From Gemmatimonadota bacterium (GTDB taxonomy: Bacteria > Gemmatimonadota > Gemmatimonadetes > Palauibacterales > Palauibacteraceae): a stretch of DNA of 10,699 nucleotides. Under the pieces are notes generated by a model that did no database searches, was not told where the DNA came from, and saw only the letters and a list, made by a program, of their open reading frames with translations. The DNA is taken from positions 1-10,699 of the forward strand of contig JBHIAV010000071.1 of assembly GCA_046758745.1 (NCBI GenBank), read 5' to 3'. Position numbers and translations under genes: made by a program. Below are positions 557 to 10,699 of the stretch, piece by piece (position 1 is the first letter of the stretch; every line of letters starts with the position of its first letter).

Positions 557-699
557 GACTTTGTCGCCTTTCCCCTTGCGGTGCATCCGGCTGTCCTTCC
601 CCTCACCGTACATCCGGGGGGGCGCGCTTGCCCCCAATGGTGTCGGCGTGACAGCTTGTGGCTCCAATTCACCACACGACCCTCTACCGCGGCGGTGAC

Positions 700-2241
700 G
701 TGCGAAGACTCAAGGTGGGTGTTCTCGATCTGGTGACAAAGAGCCCGACGAAGGCTCTGTGGGCTCGCGTGATGCACCCGAACCTGGCCAGCATCATGCC
801 CCAGGCGATCGCGGTGTGGTGCGAGAAGGCGGGACACGAGGTGCGTTATGTCTGTTTCACGGGCTTCGAGAACCTGCTCGAGGATCTGCCCCGGGAGATG
901 GACATCCTGTTCATCGGGGCGTTCACGCAGGCCGCGCAGCTCGCCTACGCGCTCAGCAACCTCTTCCGTCAGCGGGGTACGATCACGGTACTCGGAGGCC
1001 CACACGCGCGGTGTTTCCCCGACGACGCTTGTCGATATTTCGACTACGTGCTCGGCTTCACGGACCGGGAGCTGATCGATCGCGTCTTGCGGGAGCGAAG
1101 CCGCCAGCGACCCGTCGGGGTTCACCTCAGCGCGGCAGGTCAGCCGGACCAGCTCCCGGGTCTCCGGGAGCGCTGGCCCTTCATCGCACCGACGCTCGCC
1201 AAGTCGCCGACCAGCTTGAAGACCGTGCCCATGATCGCGAGCCTCGGCTGCCCGTACACTTGCAGCTTCTGCATCGACTCGGTGGTGGACTACCAGCCGG
1301 TGGATCCCGACTGGCTCCGGGAGGACCTTCGCTTCCTCGTACGCGAGATGCCGAAGGCCTGGGTGGGATGGCACGACCCGAACTTCGGCGTGCGCTTCGA
1401 CGAGTGCCTCTCGGCTATCGAGGATGTCATCGGGAGCGGCAACCTGTCGTTCGTCGCGGAAAGCAGCCTTTCGCTTCTTTCCGAGCCACGACTGAAGCGG
1501 CTGCGTGATGCCGGCTTTCAGGCGATCCTTCCCGGAATCGAGTCGTGGTACACCCTCGGCAACAAGTCCAAGACGGGAAAGCGCTCGGGGATGGACAAGG
1601 TCCAAGCCGTGTCGAGCCACGTGAACATGATTCTCCGGTACATTCCCTACGTGCAGACGAACTTCGTGCTCGGCCTGGACGAGGACGAGGGCGGCGAACC
1701 GTTCGAGCTGACCAAACGGTTCATCGATCTGACGCCGGGCGCCTTTCCGGGCTATTCATTGCTTTCGGCTTTCGGGGAGGCCGCTCCCCTCAACCTCGAG
1801 CTGCAGCGGGACGAACGAGTGTTGCCGTTCCCCTTCCATTTCCTCAACAACAACCAGGCCATGAACGTGCGGCCGCTAAACTACGGGTGGCCGGAGTTCT
1901 ACGATTGGGTGATCGATCTCACCAGGTACACGTTCTCCTGGAGGGCCATCGCCCGACGGGCCAGTGCGACGCAGTCCGGCTTCGCCAAGTGGATGAACGT
2001 GGTGCGGGCGATCTCCTCGGAGGGGTTCGGCCGCATCCGATACTACACGGCCGTCCGGAAACATCTCGAAACCGACCGGCAGTTTCGGCGCTTCTTCGAG
2101 GGAGAGACGGCGGAGATCCCGTCCTTCTACGTGGAGCGGGTCAAACGCGACCTCGGGCCGCTGTGGGAGTATCTGCCGGCTGATGCGCTCCGGCACGACC
2201 CCAACGCCTTCCTCAAGAAGATCGAGGGCCAGGCGGCGTGA
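700..2241 (+). CDS. Cobalamin (B12)-binding domain radical SAM protein, about 513 aa, substrate unknown
   Basis: CxxxCxxC motif in SLGCPYTCSFC. The N-terminal Rossmann-like B12-binding region has DILFIGAFT...ITVLGGPHA. Core motifs WHDPNF, GFQAILPGIES and NFVLGLDED are typical of class B radical SAM proteins. GTG 700 (MRRLKVGVLDLV) is preferred; the in-frame GTG at 658 is an alternative start. Confidence 0.9.
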   Translation: MRRLKVGVLDLVTKSPTKALWARVMHPNLASIMPQAIAVWCEKAGHEVRYVCFTGFENLLEDLPREMDILFIGAFTQAAQLAYALSNLFRQRGTITVLGGPHARCFPDDACRYFDYVLGFTDRELIDRVLRERSRQRPVGVHLSAAGQPDQLPGLRERWPFIAPTLAKSPTSLKTVPMIASLGCPYTCSFCIDSVVDYQPVDPDWLREDLRFLVREMPKAWVGWHDPNFGVRFDECLSAIEDVIGSGNLSFVAESSLSLLSEPRLKRLRDAGFQAILPGIESWYTLGNKSKTGKRSGMDKVQAVSSHVNMILRYIPYVQTNFVLGLDEDEGGEPFELTKRFIDLTPGAFPGYSLLSAFGEAAPLNLELQRDERVLPFPFHFLNNNQAMNVRPLNYGWPEFYDWVIDLTRYTFSWRAIARRASATQSGFAKWMNVVRAISSEGFGRIRYYTAVRKHLETDRQFRRFFEGETAEIPSFYVERVKRDLGPLWEYLPADALRHDPNAFLKKIEGQAA

Positions 2242-2984
2242 GTTCGGGGACCATCCGGCCCGGCGCACTGGTCGCTGCTCTCCTCTGGGCATGCGCGCCG
2301 CCGGGACAGGCGCCGCCTGAAACGGCCGAAGCACTTAACACCCGGGGCATCTCGTACGCGGCGGCGGGCCACCACGAGCGTGCACTCGCTCTCTTCGACT
2401 CGGCCCTGGCCATCGAGCCCGACCACGCGTCGGCTCTCTCCAACCGAGGAGTCGCGAACTTCGAGCTGGCCCGGTGGGACCGGGCGCTGGCCGACTTCGA
2501 CCGCGTGGTCCAGTTGAGGCCGGGAGAGGCAAAGAGCTACTACGACCGGGCGTACGTTCTCGACGTGAAGGGCGAGTACGCCGAGGCCGCGGCGGATCTG
2601 ACGCGGGCGATCGAGCTCGACCCGAGCTTCGCGGACGCGTACCTGAACCGCGGAACCATCCACGCGAAGACGGGGGACTTGGAGCGCGCGGTGGCGGATT
2701 TCACCAGGGCGATCGAGCTCGCCCCGAGTGTTGCGGCGTACAAGAACCGCGGGATCGCGCACCTGCGGGCCGGACGGTTCCAGGCGGCAGTTCGCGACTT
2801 CTCCGAGATCATCAGGCGGGAGCCGGTCGAGGCCCGGCACTATCTGAGGCGTGGCCGCGCCTACCTCGGGCTCGGCGACCGGCCGAGCGCAGAGGCGGAT
2901 TTCCGTCACCTCCTGGAGCTCACCGGAAACCCCGCGATCCGGAAGCAAGCCATCGCGAAGCTACGGGAGCTGGGTGCCATCTGA
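2238..2984 (+). CDS. Tetratricopeptide-repeat lipoprotein (about 6 TPRs, NlpI-like consensus), 248 aa
   Basis: Six consecutive ~34-aa TPRs (e.g. ADAYLNRGTIHAKTGDLERAVADFTRAIELAP). Hydrophobic N-terminus with a lipobox-like LWA-C19. GTGA start/stop overlap with the radical SAM gene (2238-2241). Confidence 0.9.
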   Translation: MSSGTIRPGALVAALLWACAPPGQAPPETAEALNTRGISYAAAGHHERALALFDSALAIEPDHASALSNRGVANFELARWDRALADFDRVVQLRPGEAKSYYDRAYVLDVKGEYAEAAADLTRAIELDPSFADAYLNRGTIHAKTGDLERAVADFTRAIELAPSVAAYKNRGIAHLRAGRFQAAVRDFSEIIRREPVEARHYLRRGRAYLGLGDRPSAEADFRHLLELTGNPAIRKQAIAKLRELGAI

Positions 2985-3004
2985 CTCGCGGAGACGTACA
3001 TGAC

Positions 3005-3064
3005 CGGAGCGGTCTCCACCGCAGCTACCGGCTGCGCGGCTCTCTTGCGGTGGGATGCTCTCCG
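3005..3064. other. GC-rich stem-loop between the convergent TPR and carbonic anhydrase genes
   Basis: CCACCGCA (3016-3023) / TGCGGTGG (3046-3053), extended by GAGC/GCTC outer pairs. No U-tract, so at most an atypical terminator or 3'-end stabiliser. Confidence 0.35.
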
Positions 3065-3115
3065 CTCGACAGCGTGGGCGCGTACGCCGCAGGCTCTGCG
3101 CGTCGCCCCCGCGCG

Positions 3116-3637
3116 TCACGCTTCCTGGAGCCGACCCGCTTCCTGTCGGCTCACCTCGCGGAGACGGCCGCTCTCCACCTCGAAGACGAAGCCGCGAACC
3201 TTGTCCTTGCGCGGGATGAAGCGGCTGGCCTCGATGCGGGCGAGCGACTGTCGGACGTCCTCCTCCGGGTCGCCGAACGCCTCCAGGGCAAAGGGCGGCC
3301 GTAGGCCCACATCCGCCGTGATCTCGGCTTTCACGCCGTCATCCGTGAAGGTGAGCATTCCGCAATCGGTGTGATGGATCAGGATGATCTCCTCCGTGCC
3401 CAGAAGCCTCTGGGATATGAGGAGCGAGCGGATGACGTCATCCGTGATCACGCCGCCGGCATTTCGGATGACGTGCGCTTCTCCCTCCTCGAGTCCGAGG
3501 ATCCGATACACGTCCAGTCTCGCATCCATGCACGCCACCACAGCTACCTTCTTGGAAGGAGGCATGGGAAGGTCGCCCTTGCCGAACGACTTCGCGAAAG
3601 CATCGTTGTTCCTGAGCAGTTCTTCCGTGATGGACAT
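3116..3637 (-). CDS. Beta-class carbonic anhydrase, clade D / Cab type (Rv1284/MtcA1-like), 173 aa
   Basis: Zn-ligand motifs VACMDAR (C-x-D-x-R) and IHHTDCGM (H-x-x-C), plus AHVIRNAGG, SLLISQRLLGTEEI and VRGFVFEVESGRLREV. ATG 3637 (MSITEELL) is preceded by GGGAGAGG. Confidence 0.95.
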   Translation of the reverse strand: MSITEELLRNNDAFAKSFGKGDLPMPPSKKVAVVACMDARLDVYRILGLEEGEAHVIRNAGGVITDDVIRSLLISQRLLGTEEIILIHHTDCGMLTFTDDGVKAEITADVGLRPPFALEAFGDPEEDVRQSLARIEASRFIPRKDKVRGFVFEVESGRLREVSRQEAGRLQEA

Positions 3638-3839
3638 CGTACCTCTCCCAATGATCGATCGAAGAGTCAAAGACGCAGCCCCTCCGCCAGGGGCGGCTGA
3701 GCAGAGTACTCTCGGGTGGTCTGTCTAGAGGGAGCGCGACGAGGCGGCCCTCGGGTGTACCTCCCGAGAGCCGGTACAGGCGGTCAGTGGGGCAGGCGTG
3801 AGACGGATCATAACCATGAATCCATAACGCGTGGCCGCC

Positions 3840-3862
3840 GATGGCGCCAGGGCCGCGCCATC
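3840..3862 (-). terminator. Stem-loop just downstream of the glnA stop
   Basis: GATGGCGC (3840-3847) / GCGCCATC (3855-3862): a perfect 8-bp stem with a 7-nt loop, 13 nt after the stop codon. No U-tract. Confidence 0.35.
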
Positions 3863-3875
3863 CCCCGGGCTCGCC

Positions 3876-5294
3876 TCACAGCTCCATGTGGTGCTCCAGA
3901 TCGAGAGGGGAGATGTAGAGCCGGAACTTCTCGAAGTCGGACAGCTTCGTCTCGAGAAGCTTGCTCACCACCTGCTCGCCGAAGGTCTCCTGCAGCAGCT
4001 CGCTCCGCTCGGCCTCCTGGATCGCCTCGTACAGGTCGTGCGGCATCGAGCGTATATCGAGATGCTCGCGCTCCACCGGCGTCAGCTCGTACAGGTCCCG
4101 CGTCATAGGCTCGGGCAGCGGCAGCTTCCGATCGATCCCGTCCAGCCCTGCGGCCAGCATGGCGGCGAAGGCCAGGTACGGGTTGCACGCCGCGTCCGGG
4201 AAGCGGAGCTCGATGCGCGTCGCCTGCTCCTTGCCGGGCTTGTATACGGGAACCCGAACCAGAGCCGACCGGTTACGCTCCGCCCATGCGATGTACACCG
4301 GGGCCTCGAACCCCACCACCAGTCGCTTGTACGAGTTGAACCACTGATTGGTGATCAGCGCCATCTCGCGAGCGTGATCCAGCACGCCTCCTATGAAGTG
4401 CTTTGCCAGTGGGGAGAGGTGGTACGCATCGTCTTTGGCGAAGAAAGCGTTGGTCTTCTCGTCCCTGAACAGCGAGAGGTGGGTGTGCATGCCGCTCCCG
4501 TTCTCGCCGTACAACGGCTTCGGCATGAAGGTGGCGTGAACCCCGTTTCGCCGCGCGATCTCCTTCACCAGCCACTTGTGAGTCTGGAGGGCGTCGGCCA
4601 TGCGCAGCGCTTCCTGGTACTTCAGATCGATTTCGTGCTGGCTGGGCCCGACCTCGTGGTGCATGTACTCGACGGGGATCGCCATCGACTCCAGGGCGAA
4701 TACCGTGGCCTCCCGCAGGTCGTCGCCGAGATCGACGGGCACGATGTCGAAGTACCCGGCCTTGTCGATGATCGTAGAGCCCTCGCCATCCTGAAAGTAG
4801 TAGTACTCGGCCTCGGGCCCGATATACATGCGCGAGGCATCGTAGCCTGCGAGCCGGCCGAGACATCGCTTCAGCACCTGTCGCGGGTCGCTCTGGTACG
4901 GGCTCCCATCGGGGTTTCTGATCTCGGCGAACATCCTGATCGACAGGGATCCACCGATCTTGAACGGGATGAGTTGGGCGGTGGACGCGATCGGTACCGC
5001 CACCATGTCGCTCTCGTGGATCCTCTGGTAGCCCTCGATCGAGGAGCCGTCGAATCCCATCCCTTCGTCGAAAGCTCCCGGAAGCTCCCCGGGTGTGATG
5101 GCGAACGACTTCAGGAATCCCAGGACGTCGGTGAACCAGAGCCGTATCGAGGTGATCCCGTGCTCGGTGCAGTACCCGATCACTTCATCCGGCCTCGAAA
5201 GCGTGAGACCGGTGGGACTCCCCCGCTCCTTGACGTACAGCTCCATCTTGTCCCGGAACTCCTCGACCACGGAAAGGAATGCGCGGCTGTCCAT
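3876..5294 (-). CDS. glnA: Glutamine synthetase type I (GSI-alpha-like), 472 aa
   Basis: IRLWFTDVLGFLKS, MGFDGSSIEG..RIHESDM, GPEAEY, HHEVGPSQHEI, ATFMPKPLYGENGSGMHTHLSL, NSYKRLVVGFEAP, NRSALVRVP and RIELRFPDAACNPYLAFA. ATG 5294 has a strong RBS GAAGGAGG (5302-5309), so the ORF-track extension to 5525 is not coding. Confidence 0.95.
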   Translation of the reverse strand: MDSRAFLSVVEEFRDKMELYVKERGSPTGLTLSRPDEVIGYCTEHGITSIRLWFTDVLGFLKSFAITPGELPGAFDEGMGFDGSSIEGYQRIHESDMVAVPIASTAQLIPFKIGGSLSIRMFAEIRNPDGSPYQSDPRQVLKRCLGRLAGYDASRMYIGPEAEYYYFQDGEGSTIIDKAGYFDIVPVDLGDDLREATVFALESMAIPVEYMHHEVGPSQHEIDLKYQEALRMADALQTHKWLVKEIARRNGVHATFMPKPLYGENGSGMHTHLSLFRDEKTNAFFAKDDAYHLSPLAKHFIGGVLDHAREMALITNQWFNSYKRLVVGFEAPVYIAWAERNRSALVRVPVYKPGKEQATRIELRFPDAACNPYLAFAAMLAAGLDGIDRKLPLPEPMTRDLYELTPVEREHLDIRSMPHDLYEAIQEAERSELLQETFGEQVVSKLLETKLSDFEKFRLYISPLDLEHHMEL

Positions 5295-5574
5295 CGATCG
5301 GCCTCCTTCAACCGGAGATTCGCGTGTCTGTGGGGAGCATCGCCGCGAGCGCCGGGGCGGTGCCTCCGGACGGTCCGGCCGACCCCAAGGTACGTGATCG
5401 AGTCGGACTGGAGAAAGGGAGAAGAGGAGCCGGCGGCGGAACGCAGCTCGGGGGTGGGGGCGGCAGGCAGCCTCGCCGCGCTGGCTGCGAGATGTCGATG
5501 CGGCCCGGCCCGGCTCAGGCGGCAATCTCCCGTCTGATCGACTCGGCCTCTTCCGGCGACCGGGACGGGCGGGC

Positions 5575-7196: not shown

Positions 7197-7245
7197 GCCT
7201 CGCTCCGGAAACCGGCTGCTCCTCGCCGCCTCAGCCGCCCGATGG

Positions 7246-8490
7246 TCACGGCCTGAAGGAGGGCCTCTTGTCCACCGCTGGGTGGATCGTGAGTCGGGAC
7301 CGGTTCGTGCCATCCGCTCTCACCGCGAAGATGTCGCCTTCGCCGTGATAGGCCAGCACGTCGCCGACCGGCGACCACGCGGGCTCCGAACCTCCACCAT
7401 CGCTCAGCTGTCTCTCATCCGTGCCGTCGCGTCGGATCACGTAGATCTCGCTCCGTCCGGTTCGGTTGGAGGTGAACGCGAGCCATTCCCCGTCCGGCGA
7501 CCAGCGGGGCATGATCCCTTCCGCCAAAGCGACCTGATTCGATCCGTCCGGATCCATGGTGACGACGGAAGTGCCCTTGGTGAAGGCGATCGTGCTGCCA
7601 TCGGGAGACCAATCCGGCGCAAAATCATCGACGGCGCTGTCGGTGATCCGCTGGCGCTCGGAGCCGTCCACGCGAATCCTGTAGATCTTCAGCCCGCTGA
7701 TGACCGGCTCCGAATTCACTCGCTTCGTGAGGGCGAGCCACGCTCCATCCGGAGACCAGGCGAGTCGAAAAGGCCACGGGGTGTCCGTGAGCGGCTCCAG
7801 AACCCGCAGCCCGCCGCCGTCGGCTTGGACGAGCGAGACGGCCATCTTCCCGCCGTCGCTGTAGAACGCCAGGGTCCGGCCATCCGGCGACCACTCGGCG
7901 AAGCCGTTGACGAGCTGGCCGAACGTCAGTCGTCGCTTGTTGTCTCCGTCAGCGTCCATCACCCAGTGATCGGGTTCGCCGCCGCGCCATGACCGAAAGG
8001 CCAGTCGGCGCGAGGGCGACCACAGCGGCCAGCTGTCGCTGGCCGGGTGGACCGTGAGCCGAGTGAGCGCGGTACCGTTGGCCTTGACGGTATAGATGTC
8101 GAACTCGCCGGCACGATCACTCGCGAATGCGATCGTCGCCGCGGGCTCGCATACGACGGAGAAGCCCACAGAGGTCGTCTCTGTGGATCGAACAGCTACC
8201 TGACGCGACGGCCTATCCACGATCGGACAGTTCACCGATGCATCCGTCAACTCCACACCATACTCGCCGGGAGCCAAGTTCGAGATGGTGACGGTTCCGT
8301 TCACCGGGAGGAGCTGACTGACGGAAGTTCCGGAAACGGTGACGAGGTAGCCGTTCGGATCGACATCGGTTCCCGTAGTCGTAACCGACACCTCAACGGC
8401 GCCGGTCGGCTGCGGCGCGGTAGGAGCCGTTGAGCGTCCCCCGCAAGCGGCGCCTACCAGCGCGCAGAGCAGAAGGGCGGTGTTCCTCAC
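7246..8490 (-). CDS. TolB-like (PD40-repeat) beta-propeller lipoprotein with N-terminal Ig-like/beta-sandwich domain, 414 aa
   Basis: Repeated WSPDG-x-x-(L/I)AF blades (WSPSRRLAF, WSPDGRTLAF, WSPDGAWLAL, WSPDGSTIAF, WSPDGEWLAF, WSPVGDVLAY). GTG 8490 with RBS GGAGGA gives MRNTALLLCALVGAA-C16. The N-domain is GAVEVSVTTTGTDVDPNGYLVTV...NLAPGEYGVEL. Not called tolB because it lacks the TolB N-domain and there is no tol-pal context. Confidence 0.9.
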   Translation of the reverse strand: MRNTALLLCALVGAACGGRSTAPTAPQPTGAVEVSVTTTGTDVDPNGYLVTVSGTSVSQLLPVNGTVTISNLAPGEYGVELTDASVNCPIVDRPSRQVAVRSTETTSVGFSVVCEPAATIAFASDRAGEFDIYTVKANGTALTRLTVHPASDSWPLWSPSRRLAFRSWRGGEPDHWVMDADGDNKRRLTFGQLVNGFAEWSPDGRTLAFYSDGGKMAVSLVQADGGGLRVLEPLTDTPWPFRLAWSPDGAWLALTKRVNSEPVISGLKIYRIRVDGSERQRITDSAVDDFAPDWSPDGSTIAFTKGTSVVTMDPDGSNQVALAEGIMPRWSPDGEWLAFTSNRTGRSEIYVIRRDGTDERQLSDGGGSEPAWSPVGDVLAYHGEGDIFAVRADGTNRSRLTIHPAVDKRPSFRP

Positions 8491-8551
8491 CGATCCTCCA
8501 AGGTCTCTTGAAGCCACCCCCGTATCGCGTTCGTTCACCCGGCGCTTCTCA

Positions 8552-8602
8552 AGATTGTAGAATCTGCCTTAGTTCATATAACACAATTATCGTGTCTACA
8601 GT
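8552..8602. promoter_or_regulatory. AT-rich divergent promoter region with palindromic candidate operators
   Basis: Sharp AT-rich patch in GC-rich DNA. TACAAT -10 on the - strand (8559-8554). TTCATA-N18-TACAGT on + (8573-8602). Palindromes AGATT-gtag-AATCT (8552-8565) and ACAC-aattatc-GTGT (8581-8595). Confidence 0.5.
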
Positions 8603-8967
8603 GTGATGAGAAAGGATGATTCGAGCCCTCAGAGGCCGGAGGCCCTGGCTTTCTCATCCGGCCCGACAGGGAAACAGCTCAAACTTTTCATACCCGGACG
8701 CAGAGGCAAAGGTCTTGAAGAGGTCTCGTCGCGGGCGTTCCGCTTCTGGCTCGGCTACCAGGAGGAGAGCCATGGGCAGCTCAGGCCGCGATCGCAGCGT
8801 CCTGCCGCGATTCATCGGCGGGTTGTGAACCGGAGCCGCGAGGCGGACGGCACCCGGTGGAACGGCACTTGCTGCGCACTGATCCCTTTTCGGGATGCGC
8901 CGGCTCGACCCGACCTCCTCGCACAGCGCCGGCGCCAGTGATCACTTCCCAGCAACGACGGAACGCG

Positions 8968-10699
8968 ATGGCTGAGGGAGCCGGCGAAAGAATCCCCTCC
9001 TGGAGCAGAGCCCCTGCTCCTGGCGACGATGCCGTCGAGCGCTTCCACATTTGGATGCCCAGGCCCCTCCTCCGGAGCATCTTCTGGATGCCGGTCCCGC
9101 GCGTTCCACCGGCGAAGCGGGAAGGCGCATACGACGTCTTCATCATGCAGCACGCCCTCGCCGACCTGCTGGACCATGTGGGGAGCGCCCCTCCCGGCGA
9201 ACGACCATTCGGCTTCCTCGTGGGCGACCTCTGCGAGGATCTGGACGCGGCCGTGCGCTACGTGCTCATCAGCACCGTGTGTCGTTCGCCCGTCCCGTTC
9301 ATCGAGGACTCCCGCAGTCAGATTACAGCGGAAGCATGGGCGGCTCTCCAGCGTGCGGCGGACCTCCGGCGTGGAAGTCTCGTCGGCTGGTATCACCGAC
9401 ATGCGAGCGGACCCATCGAGCTGTCGGAACACGACCTCGCCACGCATCGAAGGCATTTCAGCGAGCCGTGGCACAGCGCCATCCTCGTGGTCACCGACCA
9501 CGAACAACGGAAGGGTGGCTTCTTCCGACGCACCTCCAGAGGCTTCTCGGGCTCCCTACTTCTGCCGTTCTATGAGGTGGTCGCTTCCGAGTGCCTCCTG
9601 GTCAAGGGCGGAAAACGCACGCGGCTGGACTGGAGCAACGTCGCGACCGAGGACCCGGTGGTCCGGCAGCCGCTTCCGAAGGCGCACCCTCCTTCAGCGC
9701 CTGCGGGGAGGACGGATGCCCTCGCGGCTGCCGCGGATTCGGACGACGCGAGGCTCGACATGGAGCCGGCGGACACCTCGGAGCCGACGGAGGGAACGCC
9801 CGGCCGCAACGCAGACGAAGCGCCCGTTCGCCCGGCTCCGTCGACCGGCCCGACGAGCGCCATAGCCCTGGAGGCGGCAAAGCGAGCGGTCGAAGCGGAA
9901 GCCGCGGAGAAGGCGGTCGAGCTCGAGGAGGAGCGGCGGAAGGCGGCGGAAGCCGTACGCAGGGCGGAGGCGGAAGCCGCCCAGAGAGCCGCAGAGCTGG
10001 AGGCGGCCCGAAGGACCGCGGCCGCAGCGGCCCGCAAGGCGGTCGAGCAGAAAGCTGCGCGCCGGGCGGCCGAGCTCGAGGAGGAGCGGCGGAAGGCGCA
10101 GGAGGCGGCCCGCAGAGCGGAGGCGGCAGCCGCCCGCCAGGCCGCAGAGCTGGAGGCGGCGCGCCAGGCCGCACGGGAGGCGACGCGCCGGGCGGCCGAA
10201 GCGGAGGCGGCGCGGAAGGCGGCCGAGCAGGAGGCGGCGTGCCGGGCGGCGGAAGAGGCGGCGCGGAAGGCCGCCGAGGAGGAGGAAGCCGCCCGTAGAG
10301 CCGCGGAGCTGGAAGCCGCCCGCCAGGCCGCGGAAAAAGAGGCGGCCCGCCAGGCCGCGGAAGCGGAGGCCGCCTTGCGAGCGGCCGAGCAGGAGGCGGC
10401 GCGCCGGGGGGCGGAGGAAGAGGCGCGCAAGGCGGCGGAAGAAGAGGCGGCCCAGAAGGCCGCCGAGCTGGAAACCGCCCGGAAGGCCGCCGCGGAAGCG
10501 GCCCGGAAGGCGGAGGAGGAAGAGGCGGCGCGCCGGAGCGCTGAAGCAGAGGCAGCCCGCAAGGCGGAGGAGGCGGAGCGGCGGGCGGAGCAGGTGGCGC
10601 GCAGGGCGGAGGCGGAGGCCGCCCGCAAGGCCGCCGAGCTGGAAGCGGCCCGAAGGGCGGCTGTGGAGGAGGCGGAGCGGCGGGCCGCGGAAGCCGAGG
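8968..10699 (+). CDS. JAB/MPN (Mov34/JAMM) domain protein with a long A/E/R/K-rich repeat helix; 3'-truncated by the window end (at least 577 aa)
   Basis: Absent from the ORF track because it has no stop in the window. Frame +1 is open from 8719 to the end. My translation: MAEGAGERIPSW...YDVFIMQHALADLLDHVGSAPPGERPFGFLVGDLCED...RYVLISTV...GSLVGWYHRHASGPIELSEHDLATHRRHFSEPWHSAILVVTD...GGFF...PFYEVV...LDWSNV, then a P/A/D/E linker, then ALEAAKRAVEAEAAEKAVELEEERRKAAEA... The start is uncertain (ATG 8968 or GTG 8938). Confidence 0.88.
   Translation, partial: MAEGAGERIPSWSRAPAPGDDAVERFHIWMPRPLLRSIFWMPVPRVPPAKREGAYDVFIMQHALADLLDHVGSAPPGERPFGFLVGDLCEDLDAAVRYVLISTVCRSPVPFIEDSRSQITAEAWAALQRAADLRRGSLVGWYHRHASGPIELSEHDLATHRRHFSEPWHSAILVVTDHEQRKGGFFRRTSRGFSGSLLLPFYEVVASECLLVKGGKRTRLDWSNVATEDPVVRQPLPKAHPPSAPAGRTDALAAAADSDDARLDMEPADTSEPTEGTPGRNADEAPVRPAPSTGPTSAIALEAAKRAVEAEAAEKAVELEEERRKAAEAVRRAEAEAAQRAAELEAARRTAAAAARKAVEQKAARRAAELEEERRKAQEAARRAEAAAARQAAELEAARQAAREATRRAAEAEAARKAAEQEAACRAAEEAARKAAEEEEAARRAAELEAARQAAEKEAARQAAEAEAALRAAEQEAARRGAEEEARKAAEEEAAQKAAELETARKAAAEAARKAEEEEAARRSAEAEAARKAEEAERRAEQVARRAEAEAARKAAELEAARRAAVEEAERRAAEAE
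9865..10699 (+). repeat. Intragenic degenerate tandem repeat region (153-bp duplication and ~27-bp / 9-aa units)
   Basis: The 28-nt string CGAGCTCGAGGAGGAGCGGCGGAAGGCG is identical at 9918-9945 and 10071-10098 (153 nt = 51 aa apart). From 10300 there are serial units AAELEAARQ / AAEKEAARQ / AAEAEAALR / AAEQEAARR / GAEEEARK / AAEEEAAQK / AAELETARK. Confidence 0.85.

Follow-up and report, generated by a model that had tools for sequence, protein, structure and literature searches.

JAB/MPN proteins are known from bacteria as small soluble enzymes tied to ubiquitin-like protein (Ubl)/E1 systems, to defence islands, to RadC or to phage tails, and the PF01398 (JAB), or JAMM/MPN+, metalloproteases correspond to family M67 of MEROPS. 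Here we have analysed a contig of 10,699 nt from a Gemmatimonadota bacterium (GenBank assembly GCA_046758745.1, contig JBHIAV010000071.1, or C71; "the window" denotes this whole stretch), which ends inside a long open reading frame (ORF) that encodes an MPN head followed by a charged spacer. We consider it probable that this ORF is the cytoplasmic part of a bitopic inner-membrane MPN protein belonging to a Gemmatimonadota family, in which the head is a zinc peptidase or isopeptidase and an outer domain docks a secreted partner. An Rpn11/BRCC36-like head that is joined to a membrane anchor and an extracytoplasmic domain falls outside the known bacterial JAB settings, and databases label the family "hypothetical" or generic MPN.

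The family resembles the eukaryotic MPN+ deubiquitinases Rpn11/PSMD14, CSN5, BRCC36 and AMSH in fold, including their larger N- and C-terminal elements, and in the HxH-x7-S-x2-D motif; it differs from them in sequence (16-24% identity), in its spacer, transmembrane (TM) helix and extracytoplasmic domain, and in a catalytic glutamate that is not conserved, and the ubiquitin system and known partner complexes of these proteins are not present with it. The Rpn11-like enzyme of Caldiarchaeum subterraneum and JAMM1 of Pyrococcus furiosus are likewise close in structure and carry the same zinc motif, but they are stand-alone, small, soluble proteins of ~130-230 residues, whereas here the head is followed by spacer, TM helix and outer domain. 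Such archaeal JAMMs act on Ub/SAMP-type modifiers encoded nearby (in part according to PDB entry titles), whereas no Ubl neighbour is seen here. The small bacterial JABs (Mec+/CysO, PF14464) belong to the same superfamily, and a canonical example is encoded in the same genome on contig C43; the window gene, however, falls under the Prok-JAB cut-off, exceeds them more than fourfold in length, lacks a Ubl/E1 neighbour on its visible side and has membrane-tethered relatives. Neither Pfam, NCBIfam nor PADLOC holds a described family with the order MPN head, spacer, TM helix and outer domain. Furthermore, neither a full-text literature search (supplements outside its scope) nor the passages on membranes in PMC1779556 yielded a membrane-anchored bacterial JAB or a link between Gemmatimonadota and JAB/MPN proteins.

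The gene is real and 3'-truncated. An earlier note on this DNA, made from the sequence alone, had picked out a hidden ORF of at least 577 codons, and this is confirmed by the open frame, its codon-position GC content, its homologues and the selection acting on it. Specifically, frame +1 runs uninterrupted from a GTG at 8857 or an ATG at 8968 up to the window end, and the ATG is the likely start because M1, P10 and W12 agree with the family consensus start. The MPN part has codon-position GC of 0.69/0.50/0.78, similar to the neighbouring genes, and the head is under purifying selection, with a ratio of nonsynonymous to synonymous divergence (dN/dS) of ~0.21 against an in-genome paralog (dN 0.26; dS ~1.2, which is near saturation). 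Since the window is a complete contig, one of 130 in an assembly of 3.08 Mb that is 87% complete, and ends within the repeat of the gene, the truncation is due to an assembly break and not to biology.

The MPN-like fold that had been proposed for the N-terminus was borne out by modelling. AlphaFold2, run on the head with a 43-row alignment, gave a predicted local distance difference test score (pLDDT) of 85.4 and a predicted template modelling score (pTM) of 0.81, with a confident MPN fold over approximately residues 33-235, and a Foldseek search of the PDB with this model returned 246 matches at E<=1e-3, headed by BRCC36/KIAA0157, Rpn11 and CSN5. By VIA-align the best matches were BRCC36 (Z 14.4, with a root-mean-square deviation, rmsd, of 2.4 A across 140 residues), the Rpn11-like enzyme of Caldiarchaeum (Z 13.6; 136 aa aligned at an rmsd of 2.4 A, with 24% identity) and Rpn11 (Z ~13); P. 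furiosus JAMM1 reached Z 12.3 and AMSH 11.7, and CSN5 was also matched within the range of Z 12-14.4. The GGFFRR, PFYE and LDWSN stretches, previously taken for a conserved extension behind the fold, are not an add-on: the Rpn11 alignment spans model residues 54-234, so these stretches belong to a large Rpn11-type MPN domain, in which W222-x-N224 is a further family signature. The module also has an extra N-terminal strand, and the disordered tail before it carries conserved H27, W29, P31 and R32. PF01398 is the best Pfam match, which the in-genome paralog passes at 24.7 bits (cut-off 22.5), and NCBIfam assigned no family to the window protein.

The head carries the zinc ligands H143, H145 and D156, and with them S153. 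We aligned 186 relatives selected by the pattern GW[YFW]HxH, so that H143 and H145 are invariant by construction; beyond these, D156, E203 (the glutamate of PFYE), W40, G82 and G86 are present in 186/186, and position 153 is Ser in 98, Thr in 71 and Ala in 15 (Ser/Thr in 169/186).

The remainder of the architecture is visible in the relatives. A complete paralog of 629 aa is encoded in the same genome (C4:100438-102327, - strand) with a head 64% identical to that of the window copy (E 4.1e-95), followed by a Pro-rich linker, EAARKAA-type repeats, a basic stretch, a TM helix (residues 457-475) with basic residues upstream of it, an acidic spacer and a conserved C-terminal domain. The window copy is sister to this paralog in a quick tree (SH-aLRT, the Shimodaira-Hasegawa-like approximate likelihood-ratio test, 89) and appears to be its fast-evolving in-paralog. 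The first database search with the window protein returned 89 homologues of 345-1101 aa at E<=1e-3. Together with the window translation these make a set of 90 proteins, in which the window is represented by two truncated forms; a single TM helix stands behind the spacer in 85 of them (the two truncated forms are among the rest, as the 577 residues of the window copy contain no TM segment), and the HxH..[S/T]xxD pattern occurs in 86. An exhaustive search widened the family to 1130 cluster representatives at E<=1e-3, of which 297 remain at <=1e-10 and 48 at <=1e-30; the alignments cover approximately residues 30-235.

Behind the TM helix, 107 full-length relatives with a recognisable spacer carry 107-288 aa (median 150), ending in a Cys-x-R-P type motif (SGCxRP) in 95 of them. 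Modelling of the paralog's C-terminal part from 36 rows gave a three-helix bundle at pLDDT ~98, separated from the TM helix by a disordered spacer; this outer domain of ~95 aa has two cysteines, Cys138 and Cys194, that are invariant in 36/36 rows, which fits an oxidising, extracytoplasmic location. Together these features indicate that the paralog and most full-length relatives are single-pass proteins of N-in/C-out topology. The three-helix domain had no match in the PDB by Foldseek at E<=1e-3, with just generic helical bundles retrieved, and in the Atlas structure search it gave mainly Gemmatimonadota "hypothetical" clusters and, besides these, weak HlyD-hairpin likenesses; no other architecture was found with it, as a longer-protein sequence search (6 hits) gave only family members or fragments. 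An apparent fusion of MPN, TM helix and S58 peptidase in one related locus (L013:2255-5437, a 1060-aa ORF) was rejected, as the frame changes inside the three-helix domain, through either an assembly error or a real frameshift. The earlier note had offered three guesses for the protein, of which a membrane-tethered protease fits best, given the paralog and the 85 proteins in which a TM helix precedes a conserved outer domain; nothing in our analysis points to a polar or cytoskeletal scaffold.

Gene order in the relatives brings in a candidate secreted partner. In 37 loci the family gene is complete and followed by at least 444 nt. With neighbours called by codon-position-GC gene picking and targeted tblastn, a gene for a secreted protein lies directly downstream in 29 of these loci: an S58 peptidase in 21 and a secreted two-Cys-domain/Big_1 protein in 8, with neither in the remaining 8. 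Among the S58 loci are the divergent L035 and L036, which differ in their other neighbours and carry a gene for an M15 D-Ala-D-Ala dipeptidase upstream. The C4 paralog is the syntenic copy: 18 loci share the ZnuB-like gene upstream of it, and 23 share the gene downstream, which encodes an S58 (DmpA-type) peptidase whose start resembles a signal peptide. At the junctions read, the partner start overlaps the end of the family gene as ATGA (L038b, L049) or GTGA (L041b), and in L003 and L041a the partner starts at an ATG within Gly-Cys codons, 16 nt before the family-gene end; such stop/start overlap is the usual signature of translational coupling. The pair of family gene and Big_1 gene is duplicated in tandem in four Gemmatimonadales loci (L038, L040, L041 and L048), and the heads of the two L038 proteins are 41% identical. 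All 8 Big_1-type partners begin with an N-terminal domain of ~70 aa with two conserved cysteines (GTEPLRKTDL...RNCL.F.PT.RD), which no Pfam family covers, followed by Big_1, MG4 or TPR.

Two smaller observations concern the end and the surroundings of the family gene. The hexamer GGATGC (Gly-Cys codons) within the last 33 nt of the family gene holds an out-of-frame ATG in L003, L008, L038, L039, L041, L047 and L048. Between the ZnuB-like gene and the C4 paralog lies a small ORF (L002:2559-2861, - strand) whose Flp/Fap pilin-like segment scores 27.4 bits for PF04964, short of the cut-off of 32.2.

We propose as the likely mechanism one in which the window copy would continue past its repeat into a TM helix and an outer domain like those of the paralog. 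Close to the membrane the head would trim a cytoplasmic substrate as a zinc-dependent peptidase or isopeptidase, and its reach would be set by the stiff charged helix. The outer domain, probably disulfide-stapled, may dock the secreted protein encoded directly downstream (of S58 DmpA type or Big_1 type in relatives), and such docking would link envelope events to cytoplasmic proteolysis. A comparable layout is that of BlaR1/MecR1, single polypeptides that combine an outer domain and a membrane anchor with a zinc-protease domain in the cytoplasm; these differ in their gluzincin fold, multi-pass topology and penicillin-binding sensor domain, and we draw the likeness in logic only, claiming no homology, as one possible way of coupling envelope events to cytoplasmic cleavage. 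A bolder version, which we think improbable in its entirety, is a trans-envelope module whose outer domain docks the translationally coupled S58 aminopeptidase or Big_1 surface protein, so that changes in the cell wall or surface lead to cleavage of a cytoplasmic target by the MPN+ head; this would be BlaR1-like logic on an Rpn11-like fold, with the ER/K helix of the window copy, at least 40 nm long, as a ruler letting the head act deep in the cytoplasm. Were an envelope-coupled protease of this kind true, the finding would gain interest; an active head would in any case widen the range of JAMM chemistry in bacteria to proteolysis near the membrane or linked to the envelope.

Several points weigh against the reading of a membrane-anchored protease. 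For the window copy, neither TM helix nor outer domain was recovered from the assembly: a tblastn search of its 130 contigs with the C-terminal part of the paralog matched the paralog alone, and scanning metagenome contigs of the Joint Genome Institute (JGI) gave 15 relatives, the best at 53% identity, and no orthologue. The contig extension that the earlier note had called for did not reach the end of the window gene in the assembly or in JGI or Logan contigs; the C-terminus of the family is seen in the complete paralog. The link to a partner comes solely from gene order and start/stop overlap in relatives; upstream neighbours of the window copy recur beside the family gene in none of 52 genome loci; and the branch leading to the window copy is long (0.61 against 0.20 for the C4 paralog, in a quick tree only). 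It also scores under the curated Pfam cut-offs, with 19.6 against 22.5 bits for PF01398 and 19.1 against 25 for PF14464. Finally, by register against 2kcq, R79 occupies the position of the general-base glutamate, and E78 pairs with the catalytic glutamate of Rpn11 in HMMER phmmer only via a one-residue gap; of the 186 relatives, 74 carry a glutamate at either 78 or 79, and 56 lack any acidic residue over 75-81. The head is hence a putative enzyme, and with a score below the Pfam cut-off and this glutamate in doubt we place the protein among MPN folds carrying a JAMM-type zinc site, not among proven MPN+ enzymes. The exact JAMM spacing noted earlier holds for H-x-H-x7-S-x2-D; the full JAMM motif is in doubt at the glutamate.

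Because the general-base glutamate is not conserved, the main rival is that the head is a non-catalytic or altered metal-binding module in the manner of Rpn8, CSN6 or Abraxas, which tethers or assembles a cytoplasmic partner at the membrane as a scaffold or signal relay and not as a protease. The arginine at the register-equivalent position agrees with this, as do the MPN- subunits KIAA0157, CSN6 and eIF3 among the strong structural matches of the head, and the presence of two or three paralogs in many genomes, some as tandem pairs, recalls pairs of MPN+ and MPN- subunits. Known MPN- proteins, however, usually lose residues of the HxH..S..D site, whereas here D156 is invariant, Ser or Thr is retained at 153 in most relatives and both L038 tandem paralogs keep HxH..S..D. 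The window copy and its closest clade do have a glutamate at 78, and the invariant E203 could replace the missing general base. We regard a non-catalytic or altered head as rather unlikely on this balance; an inactive one would make the family a bacterial case of MPN pseudo-enzyme scaffolding.

A membrane-anchored protease is also to be set against a Ubl-linked or anti-phage JAB (Cap3/CBASS, the cyclic-oligonucleotide-based anti-phage signalling system; Bil/Bub; Mec/CysO) with its partners past the contig end. JAB domains do occur in such systems (as is generally known, and partly according to PMC1779556), and the downstream side of the window gene lies beyond the contig end, but the visible evidence points elsewhere, making this reading very unlikely. 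The 9 kb upstream hold no Ubl, E1 or E2 gene, as the earlier note had observed for the window, and none is found in the annotated flanks of the paralog, L003, L005, L035, L038, L041 and L052, where MacAB, outer-membrane protein (OMP), S58, NhaA, Big_1 and central-metabolism genes occur. Prok-JAB reaches 23.5 bits in a six-frame search, still under its cut-off of 25, and PADLOC gave a JAB match of only 15 bits for the head and nothing for the paralog; with relatives among housekeeping genes, the defence sensor suggested earlier is improbable as well. The only ThiF-ThiS-small JAB cluster of the genome is at C43:7544-9176, away from the window gene. In that cluster a Prok-JAB gene (7544-7894, 85.8 bits) adjoins a ThiS-like gene and the only ThiF/E1-like gene of the genome, and it is of the Mec/CysO type, unrelated to the window gene.

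Between head and membrane, the window copy carries an unusual spacer. An acidic, Pro-containing linker (aa 236-299) and a 278-residue A/E/R/K stretch had been described in the earlier note, and their composition is as claimed: from aa 300 the stretch is 42% Ala, 25% Glu, 16% Arg and 5% Lys, with no Pro, ~6% non-Ala hydrophobics (Leu, Val and Cys) and no Ile, Met, Phe, Trp or Tyr. Pairs of opposite charge are enriched at i+3, i+4 and i+5 (z 5.9, 7.5 and 5.9; 2000 shuffles) and depleted at i+1, i+2, i+7 and i+8, and acidic and basic blocks alternate with a charge period of ~8.6 aa without a hydrophobic seam. Such a charge pattern is that of ER/K single alpha-helices and not of a heptad coiled coil, which suggests that the stretch is a lineage-specific ER/K-type single-helix form of the spacer; with 0.15 nm per residue, its length would be ~40 nm or more. 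Alternating charged blocks, i/i+4 pairing and the missing hydrophobic seam are shared with the ER/K helices of myosin VI/X and caldesmon, and, much as in flexible membrane tethers such as ZipA or TolA domain II, the repeat would separate a globular head from its membrane anchor; the window repeat differs in being very rich in Ala and in Arg and in belonging to a family whose spacer kind varies.

The rod is nonetheless not a family hallmark. Spacers of the 107 full-length relatives measure 53-526 aa (median 258), and only 4 reach an A+E+R+K content of at least 60%; because most are acidic or Pro-rich, the rod is one lineage's version of a variable tether. The possibly undescribed architecture of a head held at a distance by a rod, as put forward in the earlier note, is unusual for a bacterial JAB, and no characterised family with it turned up in our searches, but the rod does not define it. 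The family offers a natural spacer series (53-526 aa; acidic, Pro-rich and ER/K) for studies of tether length.

The repeat itself is real, but we are unsure of its exact length. Its DNA consists of imperfect tandem repeats with periods of 24/27/51/75/153 nt. Logan contigs from four runs of one study (hydrothermal vent metagenomes, of which two may be the source of the assembly) contain the gene stretch, and no RNA run is among its listed holders; X1 covers 8700-10479 and X2 covers 8700-10233, X2 differing from the window by one mismatch and X1 by one substitution (G>T, in the repeat) and an in-frame GAG insertion after 10173. This extra GAG (one more Glu, at 10173-10175 in X1) is either repeat-length variation or an assembly difference, and alternative repeat joins also exist (X1 "skips 384" and "goes back 441"; X4 "skips 628"). 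As all short-read contigs break inside the repeat, one with the GAG insertion, the uncertainty in length counts among the weaknesses of the membrane-anchored reading. That the long frame, or its repeat part, is an artefact of GC-rich repeats or misassembly and not a translated rod is hardly credible, even with several frames open on both strands over 9570-10699, with these breaks and joins, and with a codon-position GC in the repeat (0.90/0.60/0.85) less decisive than that of the head, since the frame runs on from a conserved head under purifying selection, two independent contigs (X1 and X2) confirm the stretches they cover, the paralog has a repeat of the same kind at the same place followed in frame by a TM helix and C-terminal domain, and other members (P0054 and P0079) have A/E/R/K spacers of 400-500 aa.

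The family is apparently restricted to Gemmatimonadota, a little-studied phylum in which it occurs patchily. The database sources of the homologues are Gemmatimonadota metagenome-assembled genomes (MAGs), with product labels such as "hypothetical protein", "Mov34/MPN/PAD-1 family protein" and "proteasome lid subunit RPN8/RPN11". The 52 genome loci divide into 47 assigned to Gemmatimonadota by title or taxonomy, 4 from "uncultured bacterium" and 1 on an Akkermansiaceae MAG contig of 1,980 bp. In a sample of Gemmatimonadota, the head was matched at E<=1e-5 in 30 of 201 genomes (28 of 195 of high quality), a lower bound because a single protein served as query, and 12 of the 30 have two or three matches.

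Features of the window and of the Big_1-type partner loci (aa, residues of the MPN protein; partner coordinates refer to the respective loci)
Feature	Position	Strand	Basis or remark
Radical SAM/B12 enzyme	658-2241	+	
TPR protein	2238-2984	+	
Beta-carbonic anhydrase	3116-3670	-	
Glutamine synthetase	3876-5525	-	Gln-synt_C 1.3e-118; codon-position GC 0.65/0.44/0.83
Pro-rich lipoprotein-like protein, 340 aa	6174-7196	+	start ..VVAAACGD, Pro/Glu/Ala-rich stretch, C-terminal Gly-zipper
PD40 beta-propeller lipoprotein	7246-8538	-	divergent from the MPN gene
Non-coding spacer, PD40 gene to MPN gene	8539-8967	.	one sigma-70-like site, 8534-8563 (+)
Partial coding sequence of the MPN protein, 577 codons, 3' end open	8968-10698	+	base 10699 opens codon 578
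N-terminal tail, aa 1-32	8968-9063	+	modelled disordered (pLDDT <50: aa 1-11, 13-16, 18-32)
MPN/JAMM module, aa 33-235	9064-9672	+	Pfam, AlphaFold2, Foldseek, VIA-align, family alignment
Codons E78-R79, site of the canonical JAMM general-base Glu	9199-9204	+	alignment to Rpn11, 2kcq
Zinc-site motif H143-R-H145-x7-S153-x2-D156	9394-9435	+	sequence motif
Acidic, Pro-containing linker, aa 236-299	9673-9864	+	sequence composition
A/E/R/K repeat, at least 278 aa	9865-10698	+	composition, DNA repeats, charge pattern
Big_1-type partner genes in L038, L040, L041, L048	~7600-11700		
Big_1-type partner genes in L049, L051, L052	~7200-9570		
Big_1-type partner gene in L054	~1245-3635		

The remaining genes of the window are listed above. 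Pfam matches of the Pro-rich lipoprotein-like protein are weak and under cut-off. The longest ORF of the + strand, at 3831-5537, was rejected as a shadow frame without a Pfam match, the real gene there being the glutamine synthetase on the opposite strand. An ORF at 8603-8941, ahead of the MPN gene, is probably not a gene because its codon-position GC contrast is weak (0.67/0.57/0.71) and it matches no family. The sole cross-locus match is that of the ORF at 3-335, at the contig start; in two loci it matches ORFs on the opposite strand, with the family gene ~4 kb away.

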